From assembly GCA_964187785.1 (NCBI GenBank), contig OZ076411.1, positions 93,124,001-93,188,000 of the forward strand: a DNA stretch of 64,000 nucleotides. The letters run 5' to 3'. Both the position numbers and the translations under genes were made by a program. Each line of letters begins with the position of its first letter. The first letter of the stretch is position 1. The notes beneath the pieces were generated by a model, which did not search any database, had not been told where the DNA came from, and was given only the letters and a program-made list of their open reading frames with translations. Positions 11,031 through 37,145 of this stretch are shown here, piece by piece. The DNA comes from Amphiscolops sp. MND2022 (Eukaryota).

Positions 11031-11929
11031 ACGTGCTAATATGTACGAAACTTGTTTAATTTGAAAAGGTTAGCATATTCGATGTATGGCTTGGTCGCTT
11101 CGATCCCTTCGCCAAGTAATAACATTGAGGCATGGCCAAATGGCACGTCGCTCCGCGTTTGGATTCTAGGGGTAGGTGAACTTAGCTGACTACGTTTTAA
11201 TAACTCCGACAAAAACTGACATGCGTTTGCAGCCTAGTAAACCCAATTCGATTTCATTTTCCAATAAGATTGAAACAAACAATATTCCGCCCCTTGAGAC
11301 CAATTTTTAATTTTCTGCTGCCTAAACTTTCGACTGTTTGGTAATTCCCTCTTCCAACTGCAAAAACAACGAAAACTCTTCCACAACAAGAGAGCGAAAA
11401 AGGAGTACCTTGGTTTCCAAACTTGAGATAATCACAGCAAAAGTTCCATCCATGAGAAAATTGCATAACGTCGTAAAATCAAATTCCACGTATCGTGAAA
11501 TGTATAGTTGTGTTTTAAGGTATCATTTTGGTTCAGACGACATAAATGTATGAAATAAATGTTCTATATGACACTAATTCTATAAATAGAGGTTTCGTTT
11601 CCATAAAATCCTCAATTTACCGTAATCTGTCGAGCAACTTCTGCAACATGCAAAGAATCCGATAACCACAAGAAATCTCTCCTATCCTGTTAGTTCTTAC
11701 TTCCTAACATAAAGGTCTGCTTAGAAGATCCCATTTTTTTCGACACTAGAATAGTTTTGCAGATGAATACCCACTTGTATTTACGAGCATTTGCCCCAAG
11801 AGTTTTCATTCCATCTGTCCTTCAAGTATAGTTTGCTCCAAAATATCGTAAGGTTAAAAATTGAAACCCGTCCTGTTATCTTTTATTTAGCGTCACGAAT
11901 GGAATCAAGCCAAGAATCAACAAAAAAGG

Positions 11930-15119: not shown

Positions 15120-15430
15120 GGTTTTAGAAGAGAAACCTATTGAAATGGACTGAACGCCTGGTCGCTTTTATTCTTAACACCAGCTGTGTCGCAGGCTGCC
15201 GCCTGTGATGGGATCAAGTATACAACCTCCGCATACGACTAAGAGATCGCCCCGGGAACTCTTCCGATCTATTAAAATTGAAACTTTCACCTTGTTAATA
15301 CTATCTAGCTTGTTTTGATCGAACTCAGATTGTTGTCTTTGATAATTCTTTTCAATTTGGATTTAGTATTAGTCTGTTAAATATTACGATGTGAATTATT
15401 CAGATCAAGAATTGGATTTGTTGATTGTAG
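15120..15430 (+). mobile_element. Diverged remnant of the ORF3/3'-LTR junction of a relative of the 17-33 kb element
   Basis: Translates RRETY*NGLNAWSLLFLTPAVSQAAACDGIKYTTSA versus RREAYENGLNAGAFLFITPAVSQAAACDGTLITTSA in ORF 18756-19541. Downstream tattagtctgttaaatattacgat matches the LTR sequence tattagtctgttaaaattacgat. Confidence 0.8.
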
Positions 15431-16916: not shown

Positions 16917-17116
16917 TATGAAAATGTTTTATGAGTTGCATGCTAGGTGAATCCGAGTTAGCGTAGGTGTTCCATGTTTGAATTTTTGTTGAGCCTAGAA
17001 TGCACAAAGGCTTGGTTTTTCTCAATGCATTTTTGGTACACTTTGTGAATGCGAATTCCTAGGTAAAAATCTGCCAAAAATCAAATTAAAGCAAAAATAC
17101 AATCAGCATAACTGCT

Positions 17117-18844
17117 TGTCATGAACATTACGATGTGTTCTATCACCGTGTTCATTATTGAGGATAGTTCTAGTTTTCGCGTTATACTGGACTTCGGAAT
17201 GACTTTCCGGTCTCTCGTCGGATCTCTCCCATCCCCTTCTAGTCTTTTGTCCTGAACCGGCCATAATAACGTTTTGAATTTGTGGCAAAACTTGGTTATT
17301 GATGGCATCACTTATGGCTCTCTGGATTTGAGAACTAACACTGTTCATCATCTCATCCATCTCCCTAGATATTCTAGAGTTTAGTTCACACGATAACTTA
17401 TTGATCTCAGCTTGAGAAGCTATACTCGCTGTGATTCGGTCGTAACCGGCACTAGTCCCAGCTTCGGGATTCCTATGATCAGAATGGAGATTCATTTCCT
17501 CATTTTCTAAGTTATTGCTTGAAACACTTTCCTGCCTTCTAATGGAAGTTCCATCGAGACTTTCGTCTCTCCTCATGTCATTGAAAAGATTTTCACCTAA
17601 CATTATGTCAAGGTTTTCAATGTCAGAGAGAATCTCTAATCCTCTAGATTTCCTTGCTTTCTTTTGCTTTCTTGTAGTAGGCATTAAGACTGAACCGGAT
17701 TGAATACTTGAATTATCAATTCCGAAATGTTAACAGTGAAACCGTTTGTATTATGAACGTCTTTATCAAATGAAGAGAAATACAAAGTATGAGTATTCCT
17801 GCAGGGGTACGGGTATTTATACCCCTAAAGGGATGACACACACATTTTTTACATAGTTTGATCAAGACAAATCATAGGATTTTACAATCATCATAAGAAA
17901 ATCCCCGAGAACTACATATTTCCGGGGGACATTTAAGGAATGGAATCCAGATTCATCATCTTAAGTAGCAACTTCAAACAATTTATCGGTTAGGACCACT
18001 TAATGTGTGATGTAAACAAATACCACAACTTGCATATTTTATAGTAACATCAAACGAAGGCACGTGCCGGCATGAGTTTACTGCGAATTGAGTTGAAAAC
18101 GGAATGCATTACTATGTGTGGAATTCTAATACTGCATTGATATCCACGAGAATACACTCGCATATCAGGGCCGGAATAGGCCCAAATCCATAACATGTAT
18201 TGCACATATGAAGAACATGGTAAAAAGCCTCAGTCGTCCCTTTATCCAAATCAAAAGTATACAAACATCAAAACGTCACAACCGTATTCATTTAGTCTAA
18301 AACATGATTCTAATAGCTCCGCTTAGTACTGATCCAATTATGTAACAAAAGCACCATTAAGCTCGAACTGGCCGGAGCCGTCCATTTGACTGTGGGACTG
18401 ATTTAAATTAGCGCCGCTTAGTCAATTGACCATATCCGGCCATCATGAAAAAAGCACTCATAATTAGCAAAAGGAGAGCTCTGATTGGCTAATAACCGTA
18501 CTGAAAGTTACATCGCCGAGAAGGGACGTTTTCTTACTTGAACACGTTTCCTTCTCGCGATTAACTTGCTAATTGTACGTTACCGCTTTGATTAATTTCA
18601 ACAACTTCCTTTTACAATCTCAATCACAACTTGATTTGGATAGCTCCAAATCGTAATTTTAACAGACTAATATCACGAACAATTATATAAAAATGCACTT
18701 GAATAAATAGAATGAATGGGATTAACTAGTAAATATAAGTTCAGTAAGGGAAAGTTTAAAATGTGGGTAGGGTACCTGGGACGATTTCCTGATTTTCCGC
18801 TGACGTTGTTATTAATGTGCCGTCACAGGCGGCAGCCTGCGACA
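17117..18844 (-). repeat. 3' LTR
   Basis: Matches 31365-33092 at a constant offset of 14248, with roughly 15-17 differences counted by eye (~1%). Confidence 0.93.
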
Positions 18845-19541
18845 CTGCGGGTGTTATGAAGAGGAATGCCCCGGCGTTGAGACCGTTCTCATATGCCTCC
18901 CTTCTAATTTTCGTGATGTACTCGGGCTCTCCTCGCGGCTTGGACCTTGCAACATACCATTCTACTTTCTCTTTCTTTATTGCTTCTGAGGATCTGCCAC
19001 ACACCATACAACCAGAATACAGTTTATTGCTCACGTCTTCGTACGGCCTTGTGTTCTGTACATGAAACGACGCGTGGAAACCACCCAGTGTAGGCTGCAT
19101 TAGGGGGGTGTCCAAACTTGGCCCTCTCTCATGGTCAGGCGGTGACATGGGTGACTCTGGCACTGGTAATAGAGTCTTACAAATCTCTATCCTTGACTTT
19201 CCCAACTTCTTTGGGGGAGCATAACACATCTCCTGGTCAAAGTACCTGTGGTCAAATTTCGGAGTTACATCTGTTTGCGTCTGGGAAGAGCTAGGGCCAG
19301 CTTCTAGTTCGTCTCCTGAGGGTTCCTCCACAGTCATTATGCGGCCCCCGATTAGCATAGGGCTGGAGGTGACTTCCCTTTCGATCCTTGCAATAAGTTG
19401 CTCCGTGTCTGTGGAGCAGTCGGTTTCCCAGTCTGAAGACTCTCCTTCGGTGCTGGAAATGTATATTACTGATCTTTCAGACTCATCTGAGTCGTATTCC
19501 TCCAGATCGAACAATCTTCTAGCTAAGTTGTATTTGCTCAT
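18756..19541 (-). CDS. Sense accessory ORF3 (261 aa, intact): acidic N-terminus, CxxC motif, unknown function
   Basis: Intact ORF with ATG and stop, D/E/S-rich first half and GCMVCG motif. No signal peptide or TM segment, so it is not env. The C-terminus is conserved in the relative at ~15.1 kb. Confidence 0.75.
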   Translation of the reverse strand: MSKYNLARRLFDLEEYDSDESERSVIYISSTEGESSDWETDCSTDTEQLIARIEREVTSSPMLIGGRIMTVEEPSGDELEAGPSSSQTQTDVTPKFDHRYFDQEMCYAPPKKLGKSRIEICKTLLPVPESPMSPPDHERGPSLDTPLMQPTLGGFHASFHVQNTRPYEDVSNKLYSGCMVCGRSSEAIKKEKVEWYVARSKPRGEPEYITKIRREAYENGLNAGAFLFITPAVSQAAACDGTLITTSAENQEIVPGTLPTF

Positions 19542-20612
19542 GATTATCTTTTTTGCTATTTTTGAAGCTGCTCGCAGTGACTGTATTGAAGAGAAGTTTG
19601 TAGTAGAATGAATTTGTCAGTTTCAAGAATTTAGCCGAATCAGGCCTTTTCCCGAACTTTCCAGTTCGGCGGGAGAACCTTCGGCGGGTTGATCATCCCG
19701 ATCCGTCGTAAACTTTTCTGAATGGAATTCCTTAATTGGTCGGCTCCCTTTGATAACCTGATGTTTACCCCTCATCAGTGTCATCACTAGAAGAGGTGTG
19801 AATGACTCTCGACTTATGAATATCAACTACACCGTCTCAAGTGGGTAATTAACGGGTCGCTTGTAAGCAATTAGCGGCACGCGCCACCAAAATTTCTCGT
19901 AATGGTTTCATCCAATCAGCGTTAAGCTCCAATAAATTGTAAAATTAAATAATAAAAATGGCGAAAATAATAAATCTAAATAATCCAAGATGGCGAAAAT
20001 TCTAACTAAGGGTAATTAGGGTAACTGGATGTAACGACAAAACAAAACAGAAAAAACGGCCATAACCGGTCTCTAACTAAGTAAACTGTAAGCAACAAAG
20101 TTCTTTGTACACTTCACTGGCAGACTCCATGTACAGAATAAATATGTAAATAATCAAATAATATTAGTCTGGTAACTTCCTTCAGCCACGAACTCCAACT
20201 TTCCAACTTCTTCAATTCTTTTATTCAATTTTAATTCCATTTACTCCCGATCATCTTACATTTGTCTCTTCATCCATATCCTTTTAATTGTCATCAGTCT
20301 ATTTACATCACTGTCTCTCTTGTCCCTAACGACTCTCCGTCTCGCGTAATCTGTGGGTCTCCCCCGTCTGTCAGGATTGGCACAACTCCGCGGTTCCGAC
20401 CAGCTGGATCAAGACTCTTTACGTTGGGATAGCAGTATTGGAGAGGACATGTCATCAAATACAGGTTGGTCTGGTTTCAACATATTGAACTAGTTTAGCT
20501 TGATCAAGGCTAGACTTCATTCATACAGCGCTTCCTTTTTCCACTAATAGACTCGTGATAACACGTTTTGTTCAACTCTGAAACACTTCCGGAAGATTTC
20601 TAACGCGGTAAA

Positions 20613-23600
20613 ATGGATTCTTTTCGAGGAAGCATACCGCCAAGTTTTATCTCTTTTCGTTTAGAGAACCAAACAACCGAAGTTGCTAATGTACCAGCCG
20701 ACCTTCCTAACAATGCTCCAACAGTCAATTCCCCAACTGATCAGAGTGGGCAAGTCCAGAACCCGGCCTCATCCCAAGAAACGCTTCGTAGTCGGGCAGA
20801 TGACGTCACCTCCACACACAGTACTGAAAGTGACCCTGATGTCACTACATACGCGGAAAATATGGTGCGTCAGCTAGAAGGGGCACAAGAACTTGATCGA
20901 CCTAGGGAGAAACAAAACAAACGGAGCCACCTCGGGACATCGCTCCTGGTACACAATTAGATTCCCCTGCCTCACCTGCTACAGAGACCAGAAGAGCTAG
21001 CACGCCGCTCTCAGTCAATGAGGGAGAAACCCCGAATGCTGATCTGTCTGCTCTAGAGTCCGCTCTCCGAGTGGTAGAGACGTCGGATTCACAATTGGCT
21101 GAGCTAGTAAATGTTGATCTCCCAGACAAAAACACGAGCGGCGATCCGCCTGAACAACAGGACACTGAAGTAGCATCCTCTGTTGGAGATGCCCCCCTCT
21201 CCCTGGAGGAGAATTTAAGGTTCGGTACCTGACTGACCCTAGTGGAGACGAAGGCCTAACAGATCAATCTGGCATATTTGTCCCAGTAGCCTTATACGGT
21301 CGCCATCCCTTCTCTCACACCTCTGAACCTGAAGAAGGAGACGATACCAGATCTGAACCTCTTGTTCCCGGTACTAGTGGGCAGACACCCGGGCAATGCG
21401 CAATCCAGAAAGAGCCTCCACACCTTTCCGGAAGAAGTCGAGCGATCCTCAAAGAGTATTTCGACGAATCACCCTCCACTCGATTCCCAGTAGGACAAAC
21501 CACTGTTACCTTTACTGAACCGCAAATGTACCACCTTCTTAGAGTCCTTACTGATGAGACCCTCGGGAAATCCTTTTCGGCCATGGAGCGCATGGTCATT
21601 GATGCAGTCCGAGGTAAGCCAACTGTTGCCCCGTCCAGAACTGCGCACTTTTATTCAGGCAAGCGCGCTCTAACCCCAGGACCTGGTAGTGTTGGAGATT
21701 CTAGCGGAAGTGATACAGAAGAAGATACTACACTAAGGGGTAAAAACTCAGAGCCGTCCAGTTCTGGAGAGACAGGCGATTCTTCATACTGACTGCGGGG
21801 AGACTGACAGTGCTACCGAAATGGACTTGATTACCAAGTCCTTTAAAAAACCCACTAGTGCCCAAGATGTCCCGGATCCTCAGTTGTCGAGCCAGGAGGC
21901 CCAAAGAGACACTGATACTGACACGCCGAATTACAGTAGTCAAGATGCCACACTGCTTGAGGTCAGAGATCAAGTTCTGGGCGCTACCACTGCCAGCTCG
22001 TCCAAGCCCAGGAAGAAGAAAGGCAACAAAAGCCTTTCTAAACGAGGCGTCCCCATGCGAGAGGAATTCTTTTCCAAAATCGGATGGACGAGATCCTTCA
22101 TATCTGGCCCTGCTGACCCACTCCATAACCCTCATATGGTTTGGTGTCACATCTGCAAGAAAAACTTTTCAATCAAATCTAAAGGTCCCTACGAGATACT
22201 CAGACACCACCGGACGGAGCCAACTTGCGGCGGGACCAACGCTGGCGCTATGTACACTTGCGGAGTACCGACCCAATTACTGGAAAGACGCAGCACCGAG
22301 TCCGGGGTGGCAATGGGAAGCTTTTGACTAAAGTTGAACTAGCCAAAGAATTGCCCAAATTCAAGAACGTAGAGCTTGTAGATATAGGAGAGCGATTCCT
22401 TTTTTATAACGATTTCATCAAGGGATCCACAACGGCCTTGGTTACTCCGGAAGCCCGCATCAAGACCCAACTTTGTTTGGTCGGAGACTTCATCAGGACT
22501 CAAGGTGATTTGATGGTCCTACGCAATTTATGGTCCCGAATGGGGTCATTCACCAATCATCAAGCCACCTTCAACGACTTTGATTGGGGAGAAGAGAGGT
22601 TGTCGGTTAGTGCCATTTACTTTAGTTGTTTTAGCCCGAATCCAGTCAAAGGTTTAGGGAGAGTTTTGTTTCTAGACAATCTTCCAGCACTTCTTCATCT
22701 GTTGCCTTGACGACATATCAGAACAGGTCAACTCTCAACAGTGCTTTGCCCTTGAGTTTGAAGTAGTTGGAGTGTACAAGCACATGTCTGTCAAGTTCTG
22801 GAAAGGCTCCGAACTTTGTAGGGTGTTTATTTGCCGCAGCTCTCGAGTTACTACTGACGTGACCGGGGAACTGGGGTCCCTTTCCCGGTTCCTTTCCGCT
22901 GTGTCTACCAAACCCGGAATAGTTGCCTGTTCCGGATGTCACTCGGACCTACCCAGAGCCATCGACGAATCAGAGTATTATAACCAGGGCGTTCAAAGTT
23001 GTCTGCGTTTTGAGCACTTCTCACTACCACGACTCATGCACAAGACCAGCTACAGTGTCTTCGGGAAGATTGCTTTCTTCTCCGTCCTACAATCCTTGAT
23101 GGTTTCCTTGGGCGGATCTCTTATGGAAGACTGGGTGATTCGTAGCCCTGAACTCACTAAAGTAAGTAGTTTCTACATGGAATTTCTACTGGGGGAACAA
23201 GGTCTAGGTAGGACGTTTCATTTGTCCAGCGTGTTTATTTGGATCGATTGCTATTTCCAGGCTATAACCAGTTGTAAGCTTGATGTGACAACGCTACCTG
23301 TCCTCTGTCGTGAACTTATGGCCGAATGGAAGTCCGTGGTCCGGTACCTCACCACCCATGCTCCTCTACAAGAAGGATCAGGATCTAGAGGAAGGGTTAG
23401 ATTTTCCTCATTTCCCACTTGAACCCATAGGAATTCGAGTTGGCCTTTTCCACTAGGTTGATCCAAGGTCTACTTTCAATAGTTGGATTGATGTCGGTCT
23501 GTTCCAGGTGCAAAGTTTTGACTGGTCACTAATATGTGATGAGTTCTTCACCGTCAAGCTGGAGTTCTTCAGTAAGATTGTCAGTGATTGTTAGTATAGT

Positions 23601-24821
23601 TTGTTATAGACCCGGTGGTAGTAAGTTATCCTGAACCGGACATTAGTTCTGTTTTCAGTCGTGACCAGTTTCTCAGTGAGCCTGCAGTACCGCCGTGATT
23701 CGTCTTTCTATCTATGCGGGGAGGTCAGCCATTTCCTCAGCCTGCTTTGCTCTCGGATCTATACCCCGGACACTGCCCCTGTAGCTAATGCCTGGTTTAT
23801 CCTCCTCCGTTTTCAGACAAGTGAGGGCACTTTCCTACCCGGAGACGAGTACCTGGTCCGGCTGAAAATGACCAACAAGGTGTCGTCGGCCAGCAAGGCA
23901 AGGGCCGAAGGTATCCATTTCGGCCAGAAGACTGAACGGGCTGCCAACTTGGCTACCGCTGAGACAGTCAAAGCTGATTTCGTCAAAGACAGTCAACAGT
24001 ACATCCAGTTCTTGATTGATGGAGTTCTCCAGCGGACCGGGCTCAGCACCAATCTCGTGAAAGGACTAGCAGCTTTCGACCCCTACATCATGCTAAAGAG
24101 GCCAATGGATGTGGCTTTGCGGCACTTTGACGTGCTTTACAATACCTTCGCGCTACGATCCTGGGTCGATGATTCAAACGAATCTCTATGTCGGGACCAA
24201 TATATTCAGTTATTGGATCATCTCCGTACTGCTTATGGTTCCAGCTTTGATATTACTAGTGTGGCAGCTGATCTGATCGAGTTCCTGATGGGGCTCGAAT
24301 TTCTCCACGAGCGTTCTCATCTTTTGTACCTTTTTAAGTTAAGTTGTTTGTGTACAACTGTTACCAGTCCCAGTTATTCAGATGTCGTTTTTGGAGATGT
24401 CACTACTGCCGGAGGGCAAAATCGATTTACTGACTTGGTTTTACCTTGTCAGAGTTACATGGCTAATGTTGCTGGTTCCGTCATTCGAAGCAGTGAAGAT
24501 TCCAACCTCGCTAAGTTTACTGCTCTCGCTGCATCTTTTGGACGCGCTGCCTTCTCGCCAGAATACGACCCCTGGACTTACACAGACACTTTTGGCCGGT
24601 CAAAAATATATAAGTCCCTCTTAGCCACCCATCGTAAGGCCGATACAGCTCCGAAGAGGGTCTCAGTGCAAAGTGATTTGGCGGGAACTAGTACTGAGTG
24701 CGACCAATCCGCTGTGAGGTTCCCTAGCAGTAAAAGGCGAAAGAGGGGTGGGAGCAGTTCACGGTCATCCACGTCTTCTGTTGCTGGGAGTCCCAGTAAA
24801 GACTCCACCACTAAGTCTTGA
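20613..24821 (+). pseudogene. Antisense accessory gene: BED zinc finger plus hAT-transposase-like body, with introns; decayed in this copy
   Basis: ORF segments 20613-20960, ~20906-21200, ~21200-22215, 22225-22605, 22676-23395 and 23661-24821 join via three frameshifts, one stop (21790) and GT-AG introns (22606-22675 restores the frame exactly). Contains WCHICKKNFSIKSKGPYEILRHHRTE.H. Confidence 0.75.
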
Positions 24822-25033
24822 TTTTGTACATATGTATTTATGTACGTTCAAACTGTAAACTTTGTTGATTTTCTGTTTTGTTTCTTCAATTCCTTGATGT
24901 CTTGATCCCTTATTTATTCCCTTTTTGTATGAGATCCTTTGAAATGCCCCAGTATTTATTCAAAAGAAATTCTCAGAGGGGCTTAAAACAAAGATAAAAG
25001 AAAAGAATTCCCATTTCCGGGAAAATTCAATCC

Positions 25034-28000
25034 TTAGTATCTGAAGTCTTCTGAGTAGTTTGGGTTAGGGTTAGGCCTGAGGTTATATTTCCCTCCTCTA
25101 GGGCTCAGACTTTCATTTCTAGCATCGTTTTCAGATGTTTCGGGCACGATAATATCATCCCCCCTTTTCGGAGAATTTTGTGCATCGATTTCAGTTCTAA
25201 AATTTTCATCGGGTAAAATTTCTTTGTCTTTTAGGCTGTCTGCCGTATCCGGCAAAGATTTTTCATGGCTTTTTGGGGAAATGGCCGGATTCGGCCAATC
25301 AGGTTCTTCATTTCTAGACTGTTCACTAGCTTCATTTCTTGTAGTGACGTCATCAATTAACCGTTCATTCCGGCTATGCGACGCACGATCGGCAAGATTT
25401 GATTCATCACTCGTGATTACATAATCCACTTCATTCTCGTGTGCGTCACTTGTATTCGGTTGTGCCGCATTCGGTTGTTCGCCATTCGGCACGTTAGTCG
25501 GAATAGGCTCGTTGTCTCGTGTAACTAGCTGCTCGCCAAAATCTGTTTCCCACGCTATGACGTATAGGTCATCTTGCGGAAAGACAATTTCTTCGTCTGG
25601 CTGCAGACGTTGTTCTCGGAAATTATCCTCAAGCGGTTGATTGGGGACGAACTTCTTAAGGCGAATGCGATGCAAAATTTGAGTTTTGTTCGTATTGATC
25701 CGTCGTACTATATAGTTTTCATTTGGCAAAACTTTTTGGACTACAAATGGTCCAACCCAACGGTAATCGCGGAAGGGATTTTTTGATCCCTGATGATCCG
25801 CTTTCGGCTGTAAGACGAAACAGTAATCATTCTCCTTCAATGGAGCAGCTTTTGCTTTGCGGTCGTAATATTCTTTGTACTTGATATACGACTGCATAAT
25901 GTTCTGCTTCGTTTTGTCAATTAGGATTTTTGTCCGGTTTTGGATTTCTTCAGCAAATTCGGTTGTGGGGTTGATCTGCTCATTTGGATTATTTCCAAGT
26001 TTGTGATCCAAGATATTAAATGGAATTCTTCCATGGAATACTGTCGTCGGTTCACAACCGATGCTGGCGTGATAACTAGTATTATGATTCAGTACTGCTA
26101 ATGGCAAGTATTTGTGCCACTGTCGGCGATATTCCCCACATGCCATTTTGAGATTTGTTTTCAATGATGCATGAGTTCGCTCCAATTTCCCAATTGTCTG
26201 CGGGTGTTTTGTCGTTGCACATTTGAGTGTGATGCCCAAAATCTGCGTAACCTCCGCAATAATTGTAGAAGTAAATGCAGTACCTTTATCAGTGATAAGA
26301 GTCGTTGGTAGATATGAGTGTTTAGTCATGATGTCAATGAGCGCTTTTGCTACATTGATTGCTGATGTGTCCGTAAGTGGATAGGCGAACAAATATCTGG
26401 AGAATACATCAATTGCTGTTAAGACGTTTTCATACCCAGCACTTGGGGGAAGATTCGGCAATAGGTCTATTTGCATGGCGTCTTCAAGTCCGAGGTCCCA
26501 TTCAGGCAAGTTGAGCAGCTCAGGTGTGATCGTTGCGTTAGGGACTCTTTTGTCTCTGGCACATTGTTCGCACCCTTCTTCCCACTTTTTGACGTGATTA
26601 GCCATGCTAGGGTAGTAATACCTCTGTCGAATTTCCTGCAGCATTTTTGAAATCCCAGGATGTTTATGCGCTGTCCCGTGAAGGGATTGGAGCAATTCCT
26701 GGAGTAAATGTTGCGGGAGTAGAATTTGATGGTATTTAACATTCCCTGTTTCATCGAAATATTGCCTTGTCAGGATTTCGTCCTTTAGTACAATTCGTTC
26801 CAGATTGTTTGTGTAATGTCTATATCGGGCATCCTGGTGTAGTAGATTTTCTGAATACTCTTCATGAAGCAGTTTTGCTTTCAATTGTTGTAGTACCGCA
26901 TCCTTGGATTGCTCGATAATGATCTGGTTCGTTCTCCTCAATCGGACTTGTATATCGGGGTGTTGCTTGACCAGATTTGTTGACAGAGTTTGTATAGTAA
27001 CAATGGGCTCATCAGTTGATGGATTTTTCCTAATTGCTTCTTTTCTTGCCCAATACTGTTCCTCTGTCTCATCGTCGTCATTGGTGTAGAAGATTTGTTC
27101 TTCTTGCGACACACCTGCGGATTGGACGTTGATTTCGATTGGTAGTGTTTGTACATCTTCACGAATTTTCATCACCAATTTGTCCTTTGGATCTGCTTCC
27201 AATCGGGACAAATAGTCGGCGGCTGTATTTTGTGCCCCTGGGATGTGTGCTATGACAAAATTGAACTGAATGACATAATCACACGCGTTCCACAGGGCTG
27301 GGGGTATTATTTTCGTTTGGAAAAATCTCGTGACAGCTTTGTTGTCCGTAAGGATGATGACCGGTTTCGGCGCACCCCAGAAGATATGTCCGAATTCTTT
27401 AAATGCAAAATAAATTGCAAGGAATTCCTTGGCATAAATTGACATCTTGATCTGTGCTGGGGTGAAAGTTTTTGATCCATATGCGACCGGTGCATACGAT
27501 TTTCTGAGTGATGTAAATTTCTGACTTGGGTCGTCTTCAATTAGGACCGCGTACCCGGCTGCACCAAAACTTGCATCAGTCATTAGTGCTATTTGTTTGT
27601 TCGGAATGGGTTGTTGTAGGGCCAAGTCGCAACATTTGTCTAGTGCTCTATTGATTTCTTCGAATTTTTGGACTAATTCTTTCGATACTAGGACCTTTTC
27701 GTCACTTTTGAGCATCTTGTAGAATGGAGCAAGGCGTTCGGAGAGTCTTGGGACATAATTCCTGTAATAGTTTAGGAATCCCAAATAGCGCTGTAAAGCC
27801 TTTTTCGACTATGGGAATTTGGTCTTTTCCAGAAAGTTTTGCACGTTCTGTTTCTGGGGTTTGACGCCTTGTGGGGTAATAGTCCGTCCGAGAAAATCAA
27901 TTTCTTTTGCACCGAAGTGACATTTGTGCATTGTCAACTTAAGGCCTGCTTCCTGAATGCATTTGAACGTGGCTCTCAGGTTCGTCATGAGGTGGTCGAC

Positions 28001-30241
28001 ATCATTGGCTGCGATGCCGATATCGTCCACATACTGGGCACACTGATCCGCTTTAATGACTTTGTCAAGGTATTCTCTCATGAAACTTGAGAATGCGGAT
28101 TGTGACCGACTAAGGCCTTGTGCCAAGCGTCTGTAAGCGAATGTGCGACTGGCAAAATTGAAAGCCAACATTTCGATGGAGCGTTGGTCGGCCATTGGTA
28201 GGCAGTGGTATGCCTGCGAACAGTCTAATTTACAGAACAGTTTTTTGCCTGCCAAGTGTTGGGCGGCATCAACTAGTGTACTGACGGGATGATTGTTGTT
28301 GATATAATCATCCGAGATGAGGTTGTTGATTTTTCTCAAGTCAACCAAGAGTCGGAGTTTCCCGTTCGGTTTGTTCTGTGCAAATATTGGACTCGCATAT
28401 TTCGAGAACGGTAGGGTGGTGATGATGCCATGTTTGTGTAACATGGCTAATTCGACTAGGATGTCCTCCTTCAAATTGATAGGAGCTGGAAGGCTTTGAC
28501 TATAGGCTGGGGAATCGTCCTTAGGTGTCAGTTTCACTTTGAATTCCTCGTTCATGCCTATATCAAATCGGTGTCGTGCAAAGATGTCATGGAATTCCAC
28601 TAACAATTCCTCAATTTTCTCCTTCTGTTCAGGAGTAAGGGTGGAATCTTTCCAGTCGAAGTTTTCTAAGAATTTTGCACGTGATTCTGCATCTGTGGTG
28701 GGGTCGAGTGTCTCCAGGTCCTGTAAGGCCTGTAACTCGCATAGGATTCGTTTTTGTCTAGGTGTGTGTTCCTCAGGATTTCCAGGGTTTTCTGGTGTTG
28801 GGAACCAATAATTTTCGGAGTTTTGTGGATTTCTATTGGTTTTGATGAGACTGCTGACATAATGGGCTGCTTGCTCCTGGTCATTCTGCAAAAGGTGCCA
28901 GGTTGATGCCGGATCTACCGGTTTGACATACTTCATCTGTTCTGGCGTCATGACAAAGAAATTGGCAATATGTAGTCCCTTTTTGAGTCAATAAGGGTGG
29001 TCTGTGAAATTGCTCACTGGTATCAATATATTGCCGTCATTCAGAGTGACCAAGGCTGGGCAGAATGTGATGTCGCCTTCTTCATGTAGAAGGTCGCTCG
29101 GTTGCAAAATCCCAGTGACAGCATTTTCAGGGTATAGTAGGGAATTAGTCCGGATTAGGACTCTGTCATTTGGCGGAATGGTTATTTCAGCAGGGTTGAG
29201 GATTGGTTCAAGTACGTTTGAGTACTTATGGTCAGCTGTTTTGAGCTGCATTGAAAAGAACTGGAAATTCAAAATTCCTTGTCTCATGTCCAGTACTGTA
29301 TGATTTCGTTGAAGGAACATTAGTCCAATGATCGGTCCCGTTAGATTCTCCATTACTATGAAGATTTCATGAAACTCAATGTCACCAACCTCAAATTTGA
29401 GCTCTATGGTACTCTTGGGAGTTTCTAATTGGCCATTTGCGACCATTATTTGAAAATTCGGAGGCGGACCTTCCCGGATAACTGATTGTGGTGATAGAAG
29501 TCGGATTTTCCGGAGGTCCATTTCAGGGATTGCACTGGAAAGTGCTCCATTGTCAATTAGGCCGTCTATGGTTAATTCTCCGAAGTCCATCGGGAAATAC
29601 AGCATTCTCTTCTTGCATTTGAGGTTGATACTGGTCGAAAGTGGTATACAGTCTGGTTCACCCTCTTTGGTAATGAGGATATTTTGGAATTGTTTCTCGT
29701 CCAATAGTGATTGTGGAATTGGTTCTGTACTGGCTTCGTTAGTTTCGGTTCCCAAAGGGTTCGGGAATACTGGATGGTTAGTACCATCATTCATTTGCCA
29801 GTTTTCGATTAGTGCTCTGGTTTTCTTGTTATGGGTTATCGGAGGGTTTTCGTGGACTGTGGTTTGGTAATGGGCTATATCATTCAGGACGTATTGGAAT
29901 TGTAGGAGGTCCTGGTTGTAAATCTCAATGTCTCAATAGGGATCTCTGCCATAATCTGGATCGATGTATGTTGGATTGTAATCATCGATCAGTGGAATGG
30001 GCCTGAACCGGGTGGTGAAGGTAGTGGTGTGATCAGGGTCCCAAATAGGAATTGGTTTCTGGAACAAATGGGTGTTATTGTAAGTGATGATGGTGGCTTT
30101 TCCCATCTGCTGCTGCCAGACAACAGAGGGATAGCCCATCAATTGTTGATTGTATTGGTGGAAAGTTTTTGTTGGAGGGTCCGATCTGATGTATTGTCGG
30201 ACAGATATTAATTCGTTATATTGGAGTCGTGGCGAAGTTAG
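25034..30241 (-). pseudogene. pol: Pol polyprotein (PR-RT-RNase H-IN) with three in-frame stops
   Basis: One reading frame broken by stops at 29933, 28988 and 27809. Protease GLIDNGA (catalytic DTG changed to DNG); RT LRLLVDLR, YVDDIG; RNase H TDAS, KEFLA, LTDNKA, ADYLSR; integrase HHCC, IDLL, TDKG, LER. Confidence 0.95.
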
Positions 30242-31932
30242 TTTTTTGACTCATCATTAGAATATGAGGATTGGGAGCCCGATGATGTCGGTTTGGTCTG
30301 AGGTTTCTGAGCCTTGGGATTGGGCTTGTTGTCAGTTGAGTCCTCAGGTCTAGTGCGTTTGGGTTTAAGATGTGCACCAGCACCTTGCCAACATCTCTCC
30401 TCCGGGTGGTTCTTTTTCCCACAAGTGCCACATTCCGGATATGTTTTCTTCTGCGTCGACTTGCCTTGTTGGGCATCTTTTTCTTTTTTCTTTTTGAGTT
30501 TTTCGCAGTCCTTTACCATGTGACCCTTTTCCTTGCAATAATTGCAAGTGATATCGGACAGTTGCCCTGTGGACAGAGGGGTTTTAGTTTTCGTAGTCGA
30601 GGAGGTCATTGTTGCCATCGGTAGGTCATCTGACTCCTCGAGGGCGTTAAGCTCTAATTCTCTCTCCAAATGAGCAACTATCTCATCGTAGGAGCCATTT
30701 TCTAATCTGGCCATGTTGACGGACCGCTTCAGTTTTGGTGGCAGTTTTGCGTAAAGCAAGCTGTCAATCATTTTCTGCGCATGATCACCAAACGCCTTCT
30801 CGGCTTCTTGGTTTAATTCTTCGAGAAAGTCAGGCAGTTTCATCGTGTTGGGATCGAAGACCAGACGGTGCCATTTATGTTTGGCAGTCGCCTGTGACTC
30901 GGGCTTGACGTATTTCCGTCTAAAGATGACTAATACGTCCTCTAGAGTTTGTCGGTTGCTTGAGCTGATATTTCTGAACGTCTGGAGATCATTCTTCCTC
31001 AATAAAGAGTGGAAGTGATTGATCTTCATTTGCTCAGTCATTTCTGGCTGCATCTTGATCATAGTGTGAAATAGGTCTTCGAACAGTTCGAATTTCTCAC
31101 TTTTGCCATCGAATGTCATGGTATTTGAGTTGACTGGGCGTATGGTGAGTTTTTGGGCTGTCGGTCTATTTTGCATTGTAGTCAAGACGTCTGCCAGTCG
31201 GGTGATGGGGTCGGAGTCAGCAGCCGTAGCGATTCTCTCTTGTGCTGGGATCGTCGTGTCGAGGTTGATGTCCTCGAAGGACCTGTCGAGATGATTTCTG
31301 GATGAGAGTCGTCCTGTGAGAAACTCAGGAACTTGATTTGGAGATTCGTTGTCTCCTGTCACCATGTCATGAACATTACGATGTGTTCTATCACCGTGTT
31401 CATTATTGAGGATAGTTCTAGTTTTCGCGTTATACTGGACTTCGGAATGACTTTCCGGTCTCTCGTCGGATCTCTCCCATCCCCTTCTAGTCTCTTGTCC
31501 TGAACCGGCCATAATAACGTTTTGAATTTGTGGCAAAACTTGGTTATTGATGGCATCACTTATGGCTCTCTGGATTTGAGAACTAACACTGTTCATCATC
31601 TCATCCATCTCCCTAGATATTCTAGAGTTTAGTTCACACGATAACTTATTGATCTCAGCTTGAGAATCTATACTCGCTGTGATTCGGTCGTAACCGGCAC
31701 TAGTCCCAGTTTCGGGATTCCTATGATCAGAATGGAGATTCATTTCCTCATTTTCTAAGTTATTGCTTGTAACACTTTCCTGCCTTCTAATGGAAGTTCC
31801 ATCGAGACTTTCGTCTCTCCTCATGTCATTGAAGTGATTTTCACCTAACATTATGTCAAGGTTTTCAATGTCAGAGAGAATCTCTAATCCTCTAGATTTC
31901 CTTGCTTTCTTTTGCTTTCTTGTAGTAGGCAT
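30238..31932 (-). CDS. gag: Gag (564 aa, intact ORF)
   Basis: Retrotransposon gag core (FDGKSEKFELFEDLF...KINHFHSLL...FRRKY) and two CCHC knuckles (CNYCKEKGHMVKDC; CGTCGKKNHPEERC). Confidence 0.92.
   Translation of the reverse strand: MPTTRKQKKARKSRGLEILSDIENLDIMLGENHFNDMRRDESLDGTSIRRQESVTSNNLENEEMNLHSDHRNPETGTSAGYDRITASIDSQAEINKLSCELNSRISREMDEMMNSVSSQIQRAISDAINNQVLPQIQNVIMAGSGQETRRGWERSDERPESHSEVQYNAKTRTILNNEHGDRTHRNVHDMVTGDNESPNQVPEFLTGRLSSRNHLDRSFEDINLDTTIPAQERIATAADSDPITRLADVLTTMQNRPTAQKLTIRPVNSNTMTFDGKSEKFELFEDLFHTMIKMQPEMTEQMKINHFHSLLRKNDLQTFRNISSSNRQTLEDVLVIFRRKYVKPESQATAKHKWHRLVFDPNTMKLPDFLEELNQEAEKAFGDHAQKMIDSLLYAKLPPKLKRSVNMARLENGSYDEIVAHLERELELNALEESDDLPMATMTSSTTKTKTPLSTGQLSDITCNYCKEKGHMVKDCEKLKKKKEKDAQQGKSTQKKTYPECGTCGKKNHPEERCWQGAGAHLKPKRTRPEDSTDNKPNPKAQKPQTKPTSSGSQSSYSNDESKN
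30241..30247 (-). promoter_or_regulatory. -1 ribosomal frameshift slippery heptamer A AAA AAC
   Basis: TCA AAA AAC TAA at the gag stop. The -1 frame is open (KLTSPRLQYNEL...) and is the same frame as protease, RT and integrase. Confidence 0.75.
31353..31364 (-). promoter_or_regulatory. Primer-binding site (probably tRNA-Leu type)
   Basis: TGGTGACAGGAG abuts the LTR end. Its complement CTCCTGTCACCA is one mismatch from the 3' end of typical animal tRNA-Leu(CAG), CTCCTGACACCA. Confidence 0.75.
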
Positions 31933-33092
31933 TAAGACTGAACCGGATTGAATACTTGAATTATCAATTCCGAAATGTTAACAGTGAAACCGTTTGTATT
32001 ATGAACGTCTTTATCAAATGAAGAGAAATACAAAGTATGAGTATTCCTGCAGGGGTACGGGTATTTATACCCCTAAAGGGATGAAACACACATTTTTTAC
32101 ATAGTTTGATCAAGACAAATCATAGGATTTTACAATCATCATAAGAAAATCCCCGACAACTACATATTTCCGGGGACATTTAAGGAATGGAATCCAGATT
32201 CATCATCTTAAGTAGCAACTTCAAACAATTTATCGGTTAGGACCACTTAATGGGTGATGTAAACAAATACCACAACTTGCATATTTTATAGTAACATCAA
32301 ACGAAGGCACGTGCCGGCATGAGTTTACTGCGAATTGAGTTGAAAACGGAATGCATTACTATGTGTGGAATTCTAATACTGCATTGATATCCACGAGAAT
32401 ACACTCGCATATCAGGGCCGGAGTAGGCCCAAATCCATAACATGTATTGCACATATGAAGAACATGGTAAAAAGCCTCAGTCGTCCCTTTATCCAAATCA
32501 AAAGTATACAAACATCAAAACGTCACAACCGTATTCATTTAGTCTAAAACATGATTCTAATAGCTCCGCGTAAGTACTGATCCAATTATGTAACAAAAGC
32601 ACCATTAAGCTCGAACTGGCCGGAGCCGTCCATTTGACTGTGGGACTGATTTAAATTAGCGCCGCTTAGTCAATTGACCATATCCGGCCATCATGAATAA
32701 AGCACTCATAATTAGCAAAAGGAGAGCTCTGATTGGCTAATAACCGTACTGAAAGTTACATCGCCGAGAAGGGACGTTTTCTTACTTGAACACGTTTCCT
32801 TCTCGCGATTAACTTGCTTATTGTACGTTACCGCTTTGATTAATTTCAACAACTTCCTTTTACAATCTCAATCACAACTTGATTTGGATAGCGCCAAATC
32901 GTAATTTTAACAGACTAATATCACGAACAATTATATAAAAATGCACTTGAATAAATAGAATGAATGGGATTAACTAGTAAATATAAGTTCAGTAAGGGAA
33001 AGTTTAAAATGTGGGTAGGGTACCTGGGACGATTTCCTGATTTTCCGCTGACGTTGTTATTAATGTGCCGTCACAGGCGGCAGCCTGCGACA
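31365..33092 (-). repeat. 5' LTR
   Basis: Second copy of the 1728-bp repeat; on the minus strand it begins TGTCGCAGG and ends GTTCATGACA. Confidence 0.93.
32062..32069 (-). promoter_or_regulatory. Candidate LTR TATA box (TATAAATA)
   Basis: TATAAATA on the minus strand ~130 nt upstream of the gag ATG (31932), inside an AGGGGTA/TACCCCT inverted repeat. The same motif is present in the 3' LTR. Confidence 0.5.
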
Positions 33093-34540
33093 CTGCTCAC
33101 AGGGAAATCTGACATTTCTTCCTGAAAAATTATCCAAATTTTTCCATCCAAAAGAATCGAAACGTTAGAGTTTCCAATTTTTCATCTTTTTAGAAAAGTT
33201 TTGATCACGGTGAAAGTTCATGGAATTCGTCAACTAGATAGTTTGCTTCTTGACATATACTTTCTAAATGAAATGAAGTTGTTGTATAAAAAGAGGGCTT
33301 AGAAAGTGTGAAAAAATGATAAAAAAACTTATATATTAAAATAAATGCTAGTACTTCTTAGTTTCAAAGCTTCGTATTAACTTGTTGCAACGAATATCCA
33401 CAGAGTTTGAAGACAAAACATGTAGACTTTTTCCTGATGAAACAATGATGTTCTTCTGTAGAACTCAAGCTGAGCCAAAAATCGTGAGAGCTTTGAATGT
33501 TTTCATTGCAATAAGACCATTAGCCATGCCAAAAATCTCCAAAAAGGTTGTACTGGATGAACTGAGAGTCAGAAGATGTCCACTGCTCCGCTGGCTTGTC
33601 GCTGGTAGATGGAGCCAGTGATGAGAATGCCTTATGTTACTTCTCAGCATATCTGTTCAAACATTGGCTCTTTTCTGTTCAAACCCCCAGCATCAAAATT
33701 TTTCCAAAGTAAAATTCTTCAAAAAGTTCAGACTAGCCTAATTAAATAAAAAACCTTTTCTTAACCGGAAGTTAATGTCTGTGAGAATAGTTTTTCCTTT
33801 GAAGAAAACATTTTTCACACATTTAATTACGTTCCTTATTCACTGTTTTTGTCACACAAAACAGGAAGTTGTTGATTTCTTTATCAAGAATGCGTGACTT
33901 GATACGCAAAAATAGTGTGAAAAAAGTTTGTCTCAAATGTCAAAAGTGAAGGTTTCTGGTTTGTATTCAAGTCTTTTTTTAATAATATTTCCACTATATT
34001 TTCGTAAAAATTTGGTGGTGGGGGGAACAGAAAAGAGCCCAAACATCAATCTCATGTTAGTAATATAGGCACAGGTTGTAAAATCTTTTCTATTCTGTCC
34101 TTCTAGTGAGCTTCAAATGTGGAGAAAACGCTAAGCACAGAGACAAAAAGAGTCTCACGGCATTATTGAAGTGCGAGAAAAGAGACTAATTGTCAGTTTT
34201 GTACTTGTCACTGAGTGAGATAAAGAAATCATTTTATAAATTCAACTGCCATCGAGAGCCTCTCAACAATTCAGTCAAATTAACTCATTTACTTCTCAAT
34301 TCTTTGCAGTTTGCAAGTCAACCCAAAAAGTCTACAGTATTCAAGGTGAAGAATAGTTTTATTGAGGAAGCGAGCTTCATAACATTGAATCAATGGAGTG
34401 GACAAAAATCATGGAGGTCAAGTAAAATCGATATCAATTGAATTCTAGGTAAAGAATTGTGTTTATAATGAAGCGAGCTTTATAACATTTTTCCTATAAA
34501 ATTTTGCTTGTCGTATTTGAAGATTGTGACCAGGCGGCAG

Positions 34541-35394
34541 TCATTCTGTAGCTTTTCCGAACAAGCGTCGCAGGAAAGTTTTCAGAGACTGACGAGTTAC
34601 GGGAGACATGAGAAGAATGAGGCTATTGACAATGCCGTTGAACGATGTAGTGAGTTGACCCAACAGAACGACCACTTCAAACACTTTGTACCAGTACCAG
34701 TCTGGAACAGCACCAGATGCATTGAATTGAGAGAATGAGTAAAATTGCAAACCGTATTTCAAGCAATACCACGACCCCACAAACATCACGAAGGACAAGG
34801 ACAGTAGAAGCATCACCCCAGAGAGCTTGCGATCGTTTTTGGCTGCTGCTGCTGCTGCTGTGGACGTGCGAGTATCTTTGTTCTCTTGAGCCTCCCCAGC
34901 TGTTTTCTGACGTCCCATCACGTTTCCCTGAGACTGCAGCTTCTTCTTTTTCGCGAAATAGCGTCTCAGGAAAGCCACTGCTGATATGCTGTTGAGTACA
35001 ACAACTAGGATTACCGGACAAACACTGTACAAGAAAATGTTGACCAGAAACCCATAAACGTTCAAATAGGGAATTAAATCTGGATCTGACCAGTAGCACT
35101 TGTAGGCATTGTTCATGTCCTCTTCCAGACAATGAATATCGGGGTCTTTTTTTTGCCAAAATAACAACAAAGGCGAAGCAAGTATGAACACCAGTACAGT
35201 GAAAATAAATAAAGGTCTCTTCGCTCTATCTTTTCCTCCATTCACCCGATACCAGTTAGGTTTCATGATGGCCAAATAACGATCCAGCGATAACCAGACA
35301 TAAGCCCAGGAAGAACACGCTTCAAAAGATGTCAAAAGCCATTGTAGGCTTCCACACACCCATCCACTCGCAGGAAGTTTTATCAGATTAGCCA
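34541..35394 (-). CDS. Class A (rhodopsin-like) GPCR, exon covering TM3 to the C-terminus
   Basis: C...S...SSW..V.LSLDRYLAI..P (DRY motif), followed by TM4-TM7 hydrophobic segments and FNGIVNSLILLM. A polypyrimidine acceptor (ttttattttgttccag) precedes 35394; TM1-2 must be on an upstream exon not identified. Confidence 0.85.
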
Positions 35395-35585
35395 CTGGAA
35401 CAAAATAAAATTTTCTTCACCATGAATTCGTGTTTTGTTCTCAAAATACTAACTCTGATTCTTTTTCAAATTCAAAAATAGACTGGTTATGATCTCCCCA
35501 AACATCTCAGGTCTCAGTCTTTCAGCATAATTGATGTTCGAGTTAAAGCATGAACTTTAAATCCTTTCCAGGCATGTCATTATTA

Positions 35586-36377
35586 CAGTGGACTCCGCCT
35601 AATTGCACACCCTACGGTGCATCAAAATTGTGTGCAATTACGCGAAGTGTGCAATTATCCGAAGTGTGAAAAAACAACTTTGCAGGAAAATTGTACATTA
35701 TCAAAGAGAAAATTGTTAACACATATTATCAGTCACGCAGAAAAGAAGTCCGATATCTTCGCTTGCTTCCTCTTCCGCTTCGTCTCGACTGAATTTTCCA
35801 AATAATCCAGCTTTTCCTGGGAAATCACGTCGCCGGAAAAGTAAACTCGAAGCTTCTCCAGCATGTCCAAAGCTTCTGCGGTCGCGCTTTTTGGAGGTAT
35901 TTTCATTGTTCTCGATTGCAGCCAAGATTTTCTGTTCGTCTCTTTTAATCCTCGACACACTGCATCTGTCAATTCCAAACTCAACGGCAATTTCCGATTG
36001 AGTTCTGCCTTTGTGAATTTCGGTCAAAACCGAAAATTTTTGGCCGAGGTTAAGCTCAACCTTTCGTTTTCGACTGCCGCTGCTCATGGCTAACTGCTGA
36101 AGAATGGAATGGTAGCTATTTCTGAGAAATGTCAACACGCGCGATGCGATTTCTGAGAAATGTCAACACGCGCGATGCGATTTCTGAGAAATGTGCAAAT
36201 AGAAAGAGCAAAATGCGGTTTGGGAGAAAATATTTGCGTGCAATTAGCCGGAGTGTGCAAACAATTACGCGATGTGCAAATATCCGAAGCAAATAATAGC
36301 GTGGACGGGACGGCAAAATGGTGTGCATATATCCGGAGTGTGCAATTATCCGGTGTGCAATTAGGCGGAGTCCACTG
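35586..36377 (-). mobile_element. Internally deleted pogo/Tigger DNA transposon
   Basis: TIRs CAGTGGACTCCGCCTAATTGCACAC at both ends with TA duplication. Encodes a CENP-B/psq-like HTH (KRKVELNLGQKFSVL...SEIAVEFGI...SVSRIKR) fused out of frame to a Tigger-like tail (KRKQAKISDFF). Confidence 0.9.
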
Positions 36378-36379
36378 TA

Positions 36380-37145
36380 TTTGGCGAGTATTTCCGAGTC
36401 ATTTTCCGAGTAAACCTACCAATTACAGTTTAGCGAGTAAAACCGCCTAAAAAGCCTGTATTTCTGAGAAATAGCCTGTACAACCAAGCAATAACCCATA
36501 TTTCTGAGAAATTGCTTTAATATATTGCTGATTTCAGACGCGCGTATGGCAGTGCGTAAAAATGAGCGAAGAAAGTGACTTATCTCATAACTCAATTCTT
36601 GAGTCAGGTTTACACGAAAACCAAGTGACAACGGTACCTCCAGTTACACCGAAATGCGAGAGTCAGTTCAACGAAATGCGTCGAGAGGGGCCAAGAGACA
36701 GCATTTGTCGACCATGACAGCTGCAGAAACGGCCAGAATGCTGGGAAACGAGGACTTTTACGCAGAGGCAGCCAAATTATTCTGCAAATTTTGCAAGAAA
36801 GCAGTCGATCATCGCAGCCAAAGTGTTGTAAACAGACACCTGATCTCCGATAAACATACGAAAAATAAGAAGGATCCCAATCGGAATCCCGCAAAAACCA
36901 TAACCACGGCATCCAAAGTATCCAACGCAGCGCGGTTGCAAAATATTCGACTAGTATCAAAATGGGTCCCAAGTTGCGCTGCCTCTAACATACCACCTAA
37001 TGCCGCCTCGGACAACATCACAATGCGCAATGTTTCTGTATGTCAACGCCGAAATTTTTTTAAATTTTTGTTGTTAATTTCGTTTTTTTTCCGAGTCATT
37101 TACCGAGTAATCCACCCACATTCGAGCCTGTACCGAGTCGAGTAA
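36380..37145 (+). mobile_element. CGGBP1-like zinc-finger hAT remnant
   Basis: ORF 36654-37145 KLFCKFCKKAVDHRSQSVVNRHLISDKH...SNIP...DN matches the CGGBP/hAT N-terminal finger pattern. Clusters of ccgagt subterminal repeats occur at both ends. Confidence 0.65.

Follow-up and report, generated by a model that had tools for sequence, protein, structure and literature searches.

Structure of the element and of its accessory genes

The analyzed window comprises 64,000 nt of contig OZ076411.1 (assembly GCA_964187785.1, forward strand positions 93,124,001 to 93,188,000), and coordinates given without a contig name are positions within it. The window harbors a long terminal repeat (LTR) retrotransposon of the Ty3/Gypsy type at 17117-33092, read on the minus strand, which carries two genes between pol and its 3' LTR: gene A, antisense to the element, and gene B, a divergent gene in sense orientation. 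Two direct repeats of 1728 nt with TG...CA ends form the 5' LTR (31365-33092, minus strand) and the 3' LTR (17117-18844, minus strand), and the target site duplication CTGCT flanks the element on the left (17112-17116) and on the right (33093-33097). Five-bp duplications were present in eight of ten further copies; of the other two, one is truncated at an LTR and one stands in tandem. The primer binding site (PBS) of 12 nt (31353-31364, minus strand), TGGTGACAGGAG when read from 31364 to 31353, is exactly complementary to the 3' end of the host tRNA-Leu(CAA) plus CCA and was found in 22 of 22 family copies. The preliminary description had taken the LTR pair, the target site duplication and the PBS as marks of one unit, and 17117-33092 is indeed a single integrated insertion. 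It had also estimated an LTR divergence of about 1% and a fairly recent insertion, in agreement with the aligned LTRs, which differ by 14 substitutions and two one-base gaps in 1729 columns (Kimura two-parameter distance 0.8%).

The host is an animal, as indicated by Wnt genes in its 1.07 Gb genome and by an open frame for a rhodopsin-family receptor at 34541-35416 (minus strand), 1.4 kb past the 5' LTR. The 5' motif of tRNA-Leu forms large tandem clusters on the contigs C11 (6004211-6078791), C8 and C9; those inspected on C8 consist of intron-bearing tRNA-Leu(CAA) genes, i.e., of genes for the primer of the element.

The assignment to Ty3/Gypsy is based on the domain order, as Pfam yielded CCHC knuckles followed by protease, reverse transcriptase (RT), RNase H and integrase in the order typical of Gypsy elements (PR-RT-RH-IN). 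The gag gene (30238-31932, minus strand) encodes 564 amino acids (aa) with CCHC knuckles. Because its ATG is located 568 nt inside the 5' LTR, the PBS falls within gag; a gag start 568-592 nt inside the 5' LTR was found in 9 of 11 other copies. The pol gene (25034-30250, minus strand) lies in the -1 frame relative to gag, whose end it overlaps at AAAAAAC, and stops at 25034. Its protease is followed by a degenerate dUTPase-like stretch (about 29200-28990) and then by RT, RNase H and integrase. The dUTPase match following the protease was obtained with a relative, and the frame of the window copy aligns across that stretch. A Pfam scan of pol revealed no chromodomain. The copy in the window is dead, with three in-frame stops in pol (29933, 28988 and 27809) and four frame changes in the first exon of A. 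The matches to its RT were all near-copies, and many RT matches elsewhere sit within open frames of 1735-1738 aa.

The pol stop is followed by 6.2 kb with the two accessory genes, and the earlier description of an antisense gene of about 4.2 kb and a divergent sense reading frame agrees with what was found here. Gene A (20613-24821, plus strand) spans 4.2 kb with five exons encoding about 1290 aa. Exon 1 (20613-22605) encodes an acidic, weakly conserved N-terminal region, a BED-like finger (CxxC...HxxxxH, near 22143-22230) and a helical domain; its frame changes in the window copy are located near 20905, 21195, 21790 and 22220. Exon 2 (22676-23161; 162 aa) encodes a predicted RNase H-like core with the Hermes transposase as best fold match. 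Exon 3 (23261-23395; 45 aa) and exon 4 (23508-23589; 82 nt) are short, and exon 5 (23659-24821; 387 aa) is helical, resembles the C-terminal part of hAT transposases and has, close to its end, a basic cluster that was present in 11 of 11 cases.

Conserved splice-site columns and exon lengths indicate that A is a spliced gene. Gene models were established for 30 copies. As the patterns used for these models demanded GT and AG, a plain DNA alignment of 31 copies provided an independent check, in which GT and AG occupied shared columns for all four introns; the splice sites are kept even between copies that are 40% apart. The introns are 66-156 nt long in the modelled copies, and the lengths of exon 2 (486 nt in 24 of 30), exon 3 (135 nt in 28 of 30) and exon 4 (82 nt in 27 of 30) are largely constant. 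Column conservation amounts to 0.70-0.81 in exons 2-5 versus 0.47-0.61 in the introns. Intron 3 (23396-23507, plus strand) is missing to the base in six of the 30 modelled copies, spread over two branches of the A tree, which is the mark of a real intron removed via a spliced copy. The acceptor of intron 1 was found at the matching aligned position in all eight copies of the sister family and the far clade (see below) that were looked at.

Gene B (18756-19541, minus strand) encodes 261 aa from its Met, with an acidic N-terminal half and a CxxC motif, and is open (256-263 aa) in 23 of 31 copies. The codons preceding the Met (19542-19583, minus strand) keep the pattern KIAKKxI with synonymous changes, and some copies have stops a few codons higher, so that the true start may lie a few codons upstream. 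An 88-nt remnant of the junction between B and the 3' LTR (76% identical) is located on the opposite strand at 15124-15211, at a distance of 1.9 kb from the element. Neither protein is env-like, as had been proposed: membrane segments and signal peptides were found neither in A nor in B, the highest 19-residue hydropathy being 1.7 and 1.5, respectively, and in neither case at the N-terminal end.

The last part of gene B extends 89 nt into the 3' LTR. The first 89 nt of this LTR are therefore the end of B, its last 568 nt are a copy of the gag start, and the inner edges of both LTRs fall within reading frames (gag at the 5' side, B at the 3' side). The site of the expected polypurine tract (18845-18864, minus strand) is pyrimidine-rich and codes for B. 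No such tract was found in 22 copies, in which the 20 nt preceding the 3' LTR contain only 25-40% purine; one additional copy without the edge motif was excluded from this count. In three of four sister-family copies a short G run of 6-8 nt is present at the LTR edge. The reading frames across the LTR edges and the absent polypurine tract raise the separate question of plus-strand priming.

The divergent starts of B and A are separated by a spacer of 1.07 kb (19542-20612) with a conserved CCAAT, AAAATGGCG repeats and palindromes. The conserved CCAAT and AAAATGGCG motifs suggest that it is likely a bidirectional promoter. A third gene in this spacer was considered and rejected, as no frame is maintained across the copies. 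A search for conserved RNA structure in the spacer yielded a single hairpin window that stood out and no Rfam match. Conserved hairpin-like and palindromic motifs at 20460-20620, directly upstream of the A start, are candidate binding sites. The second spacer (24822-25033), which separates the stops of the convergent genes A and pol, contains TGTACATATGTA at 24825-24836 and AATAAA in sense orientation at 24960-24955 and 24918-24913. Within 260 nt past the pol stop, all 31 copies have an AATAAA on the sense strand, and 25 of 31 have a TGT(A/G)CATATGTA-type motif past the A stop; the region is A/T-rich. The LTR of the window copy contains no AATAAA.

Occurrence, selection and reassortment of the accessory genes

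Two sets of copies were sampled: ten picked by similarity of A, and twenty picked by RT alone (every seventh of 150 rows listed, rows 2 to 135). All ten A-picked copies have gag-pol, A and B in the same places, and all twenty RT-picked copies have both A and B. In the 11 RT-picked copies whose 5' halves were compared, the LTRs are 98.4-100% identical over 640-800 nt, and hence the family moved recently. The module is fixed in its position across the copies and possesses no terminal inverted repeats of its own. The 6.2 kb past pol are family cargo and not a private insertion. The assumption that the module was retrotransposed together with the element is thereby borne out, and a nested insertion private to this copy, which the preliminary description had named as the alternative, is contradicted. 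Eleven of the 30 modelled copies have A as an open frame (1270-1308 aa); all of these are among 19 RT-picked copies, and none is among the window copy and its ten A-picked relatives.

Genome-wide, exact LTR/PBS junctions number 3,430, and the finger motif of A was matched 1,197 times. On the first 29.6 Mb of contig C1, where both lists were paired by hand, 22 of the 24 finger matches stand in antisense geometry to a junction, in 20 cases at a distance of 9.15-9.4 kb. In the same region 78 of 100 junctions lack an exact finger match. Twenty of these 78 were sampled (every fourth, one swapped to avoid a tandem partner): two belong to the family itself and carry A and B, four to a sister family (integrase 54-71% identical), likewise with A and B, and nine to a far clade with an integrase identity of 43-51%. 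The remaining units comprise two with internal deletions and three without an integrase in the stretch looked at. All nine far-clade units carry antisense frames homologous to A, so that an A-type antisense gene is present in 15 of the 15 sampled units showing an integrase. In the far-clade comparison the finger region matched with a probability of 86 (E 5e-6) and the last exon with E 1e-4 and 0.005; these matches stood out among 56 comparisons, the next best of which reached E 0.01. No B homologue was detected in the far-clade units. The far clade shares the primer site, and in exon 2 its A-type gene retains no more than 12-15% identity.

Spacings of 14.2-14.6 kb between family copies, as expected for tandem units with a common LTR, were observed at C12:14843866-14873610, C6:27809554-27824708, C5:67769929-67785086 and C1:34581046-34595794. 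A variant of the primer-site sequence forms many same-strand pairs with a spacing of 13-15 kb, which may represent tandems of a related family.

Both accessory genes are under purifying selection, as judged from the proportions of synonymous and nonsynonymous differences (pS/pN; medians over eight copies, 28 pairs). The 3' part of pol yields 0.41/0.019; the A core reaches 0.81/0.31, the N-terminal region of A 0.71/0.45 and B 0.79/0.21. Synonymous sites are saturated in A and B, and the few unsaturated pairs yield dN/dS values near 0.08-0.11.

Within 19 copies pol diverges by 0.7-15.5% and A by up to 43%, and with a cut of 15% these copies comprise 14 A types and 10 B types. Some pairs are only 0.7-1.4% apart in pol and 2-3% in B, yet 40% in A. 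In Mantel tests r was 0.11 (p 0.09) for pol and A, 0.13 (p 0.10) for pol and B, and 0.22 (p 0.01) for A and B. From these comparisons of sequence types, A and B reassort between copies on a shared, near-uniform pol. The deep divergence of A and B on closely related pol genes indicates that the accessory types are much older than the pol carrying them and are being shuffled.

Probable origin and putative function of gene A

Three separate parts of A point to hAT transposases, and they do so in the right order, since a finger, a core and a helical tail constitute the hAT domain order. For this reason A probably derives from a captured hAT transposase. The finger is nearly invariant over 108 homologues, including the C and H ligands, and zf-BED matches were obtained for three of three far-clade fingers (E 0.002, 0.028 and 0.035, all below the cut-off) and with E 0.11-0.16 for single family members. 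For exon 2, a model built from 31 sequences (predicted local distance difference test, pLDDT, 64.7; predicted template modeling score 0.57) shows the order helix, three strands, helix, strand, helix, strand, which is the layout of the predicted RNase H-like fold. In a Foldseek search of this model against 350,542 chains Hermes, a hAT transposase, occupied ranks 1-6 with E 0.010-0.030, none reaching 0.001. VIA-align listed RNase H folds for exon 2, with Hermes at Z 5.7 (root mean square deviation 4.0) and the longest alignment of the top rows (135 residues, UvrC 134). Exon 5 was placed by the Atlas near hAT dimerisation (24 of 30 matches) and FAM200-like clusters at 0.92. In the profile comparison of A with host genes assigned to hAT by their motifs, the best matches fell at the expected landmarks, the finger with E 0.019 and exon 2 with E 0.012, at reversed-control values of 0.10 and 0.58.

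Several results weigh against this derivation and against the regulatory role discussed below. Each hAT signal is weak alone, with zf-BED under the cut-off, Foldseek at E 0.010-0.030 and a model pLDDT of 65; Hermes is tied in VIA-align with UvrC (Z 6.5 and 6.2), integrases and actin-like folds; and the Atlas recognition of 1931 and the 142-147 shared features lie under the tool's own marks. Profile and pairwise comparisons of A with host hAT loci were mostly blank or no better than reversed controls. Pfam assigned no family to exon 5 or to 44 scanned homologues, and the exon 5 model was poor (pLDDT 54.5), its fold searches being uninformative. Residue E65 of exon 2 is nearly invariant, and A may therefore retain some activity. 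Finally, the A types are untied to LTR or B types (Mantel r 0.22).

The preliminary description had suggested profile and structure searches with both proteins: for A they led to Hermes at the top fold ranks, none significant alone, and for B no family was found. Searches of Pfam, NCBIfam and PDB sequences yielded no significant family for either protein. A control host transposase was likewise without a hAT Pfam match. A search for DUF4371 gave no match anywhere, longer homologues of exon 5 did not score, and of 133 pattern matches in a scan of JGI metagenomes none was confirmed. Homologues of A numbered 626 at E 0.001 among 1.84 billion representatives, with identities down to 20-25%. In the Atlas, B is placed near piggyBac clusters at 0.86, which is a lead only. 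A DNA transposase family with apparently intact catalytic motifs and yet no hAT Pfam match was also observed in the host.

Gene A is likely to be catalytically disarmed. In 31 rows no conserved acid was found at the ends of strands 1 and 4, where the catalytic triad would be expected, and inspection of the exon 5 rows by eye revealed no ERxFS-type motif, which we take to be a hAT catalytic motif, after the helical region. Neither the 8-bp target duplication nor the terminal inverted repeats of a hAT transposon were found at the module.

Our preferred interpretation, to which we assign a probability of roughly one half, is that A is a captured, disarmed hAT transposase acting as a nuclear DNA-binding regulator, with B as a divergent sense gene. 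The odds are about even for the predicted role of A, in which it would attach to the DNA of the element within the nucleus and maintain the element's transcription or prevent its silencing. A nuclear site of action is suggested by the nearly invariant finger, the basic cluster towards the C-terminal end and the lack of a membrane segment. A would be transcribed from a promoter in the 1.07-kb spacer that fires both ways. Because introns on the opposite strand are not cut out of genomic RNA, the backward-facing introns of A would escape its splicing and outlast retrotransposition, and for the same reason an intron-bearing gene could be carried only backwards; on rare occasions, recombination with cDNA of the spliced A message would delete one intron. 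The finger is predicted to bind a conserved site within the element, the acidic and poorly kept N-terminal half (the first 500 residues) to keep the element transcribed or unsilenced, and B to be a nuclear partner of A. Template switching between co-packaged RNAs is predicted to shuffle LTR plus B, A and pol, and selection for rare types to maintain the many old A and B types. Tentatively, this may be extended to the proposal that a clade of animal Gypsy elements domesticated a hAT transposase long ago as an antisense, intron-bearing gene, and that interchangeable regulator types on a shared pol, held under balancing selection, evade host silencing.

A finger on a transposase scaffold would also fit a chromatin tether, i.e., a protein that steers the integration complex to chosen sites or into the nucleus, and the basic clusters of A and a pol without chromodomain agree with such a role. 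It appears unlikely, however, as insertions are found on all large contigs with unrelated 5-bp target duplications, and a tether has no obvious need for 14 diverged A types.

Alternatively, the module may govern the fate of the RNA, with A or, likelier, B carrying the full-length RNA past the poly(A) signal following pol and through nuclear export, by analogy with CERV of Cer1 or Rev of human immunodeficiency virus. The AATAAA past pol in all 31 copies together with its absence from the window LTR, the CxxC motif and acidic region of B, and the precedent of CERV, which is a nuclear accessory protein from a spliced transcript of an animal Gypsy element according to the available part of its description (PMC10309623), speak in favor of this possibility. 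Yet the spacer is A/T-rich and the copies are related, so that AATAAA may be chance; a sequence link between B and CERV was not found, and none was tested; and A seems built for DNA. As an explanation of the whole module it is therefore improbable, but an RNA-fate role could hold for B alongside a regulatory A.

An addiction or exclusion system made up of A and B, either poison and antidote or an immunity between element types, would explain the many old, reshuffled types: 14 A and 10 B types with saturated synonymous sites in 19 copies whose pol genes are only 1-15% apart, arranged as a divergent gene pair. Matched pairs should stay together, however, whereas A and B types are only weakly linked, and B was not detected in the far clade; we regard this explanation as quite unlikely. 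Still less support can be given to A as an enzyme, a nuclease that aids replication, e.g., by making the plus-strand primer in place of the polypurine tract. The RNase H-like fold and the nearly invariant E65 would be in line with it, as would the lack of a purine tract just before the 3' LTR, where 22 copies have only 25-40% purine. It is very unlikely, however: conserved acids are missing from the strand ends, the metal-holding positions of RNase H-fold enzymes, a short run of G does occur next to the LTR in sister families with A, and pol carries its own RNase H. The notion of a functionless passenger, in the form of an old DNA transposon that inserted into the element and has since been copied with it, could draw on the likely hAT origin and on the broken A of the window copy and its ten nearest relatives, but is largely refuted by the pS/pN contrast with its strong purifying selection, by open A frames in 11 of 19 RT-picked copies, and by kept exon lengths and splice sites, the lack of terminal repeats and the presence across clades.

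The reading of A as a captured regulator can be placed among known systems. In the available parts of the literature, antisense ORFs of unknown origin are described for the plant Gypsy elements Retand, Grande and RIRE2 and also for two fungi, and gene23 of Grande has its own internal promoter and a nuclear protein, for which a regulatory role is proposed, not shown (PMC11963269, PMC7264820). Like the element studied here, these plant elements have a long region between pol and the 3' LTR (2.9-6.6 kb as reported there, 6.2 kb here) with a family-wide antisense gene. Here, in contrast, the host is an animal, a hAT origin is likely, a second, divergent sense gene is present, the polypurine tract is absent and gag begins in the LTR. 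Furthermore, A has four introns, whereas the word 'intron' does not occur in the available text of the Retand paper (PMC11963269), and the TRP28 domain (PF04195) of the Retand lineage had no Pfam match in the proteins of the element. With hAT transposases such as Hermes and their derivatives (FAM200/GTF2IRD2-like proteins, DAYSLEEPER) A would share a BED-like finger, a predicted RNase H-like core and a helical C-terminal part in the same order; unlike them it lacks the DDE triad and terminal inverted repeats and has an acidic extension of 500 aa. While hosts did the domesticating in the case of the host derivatives, here it was apparently a retrotransposon. HBZ of human T-cell leukemia virus type 1 (HTLV-1) is spliced as well, and A resembles it as a putative spliced antisense regulator; unlike A, HBZ is small and is expressed from the 3' LTR. 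It is described as antisense and nuclear in the accessible part of PMC11963269.

Among animal elements, CERV of Cer1 from C. elegans is a spliced, sense-oriented nuclear export factor with a cysteine motif, as far as the available part of PMC10309623 describes it. Both systems comprise a non-env accessory protein of an animal Gypsy element with a cysteine motif, a nuclear location and a spliced message, the latter two being predicted here; CERV, however, shares exons with gag, whereas A is antisense and stands alone. LTR elements of bdelloid rotifers, which are Gypsy-like as well, encode a dUTPase between protease and RT and carry captured non-env genes downstream of pol, their ORF3 encoding GDSL esterases, DEDDy nucleases or env-like proteins, and in the available text of the report (PMC5408684) the words 'transposase' and 'intron' are absent. 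VANC proteins of Arabidopsis VANDAL elements are fast-diversifying anti-silencing proteins encoded by the element, and host-derived accessory domains are reported for Arabidopsis transposons (available part of PMC13547354). A would resemble VANC as a fast-diversifying regulator, a role that is predicted here. VANC, however, sits in DNA transposons and tracks its target motif, whereas the finger of A is nearly invariant and A types swap freely; that A types are untied to LTR types argues against a VANC-like match of each A to its own LTR.

In the literature searched, which left subscription papers, supplements and repeat databases aside, neither a spliced antisense gene nor a gene of hAT derivation was listed for any animal LTR element. 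The statement in the preliminary description that the arrangement is not known in animals is uncontradicted to this extent; animal Gypsy elements with accessory genes on the sense strand are known. The element belongs to a known kind, Gypsy elements with an antisense accessory gene, and within the literature searched the animal host, the introns and the likely hAT source set it apart. The antisense ORFs of plant Gypsy elements have long been without an established origin or task, and the animal case offers a likely source that can be traced, a hAT transposase. It also gives the backward orientation a visible reason, the survival of the introns, and suggests that retrotransposons, like hosts, turn transposases into regulators. 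More than 1,000 copies with many natural types open the binding site, the partner and the cause of the diversity to direct test.

Further features of the window

Outside the element, a decayed Copia-type element with pieces of a Pol beta-barrel, CCHC and RVT_2 is located at about 5500-11200, accompanied by a 67-nt direct repeat and 87-nt inverted arms. The region from about 38000 to 61000 is a strongly C-skewed, decayed retroelement with integrase pieces, a tandem duplication of 6.3-7.5 kb and 318-nt repeats; a mitochondrial origin of this skewed region was considered and rejected. A frame at 36603-37145 (plus strand) encodes a U1-like zinc finger and is perhaps the start of a transposase. Upstream of it, a small element at 35584-36379 carries perfect 28-nt terminal inverted repeats and a fragment of a CENP-B-type helix-turn-helix.

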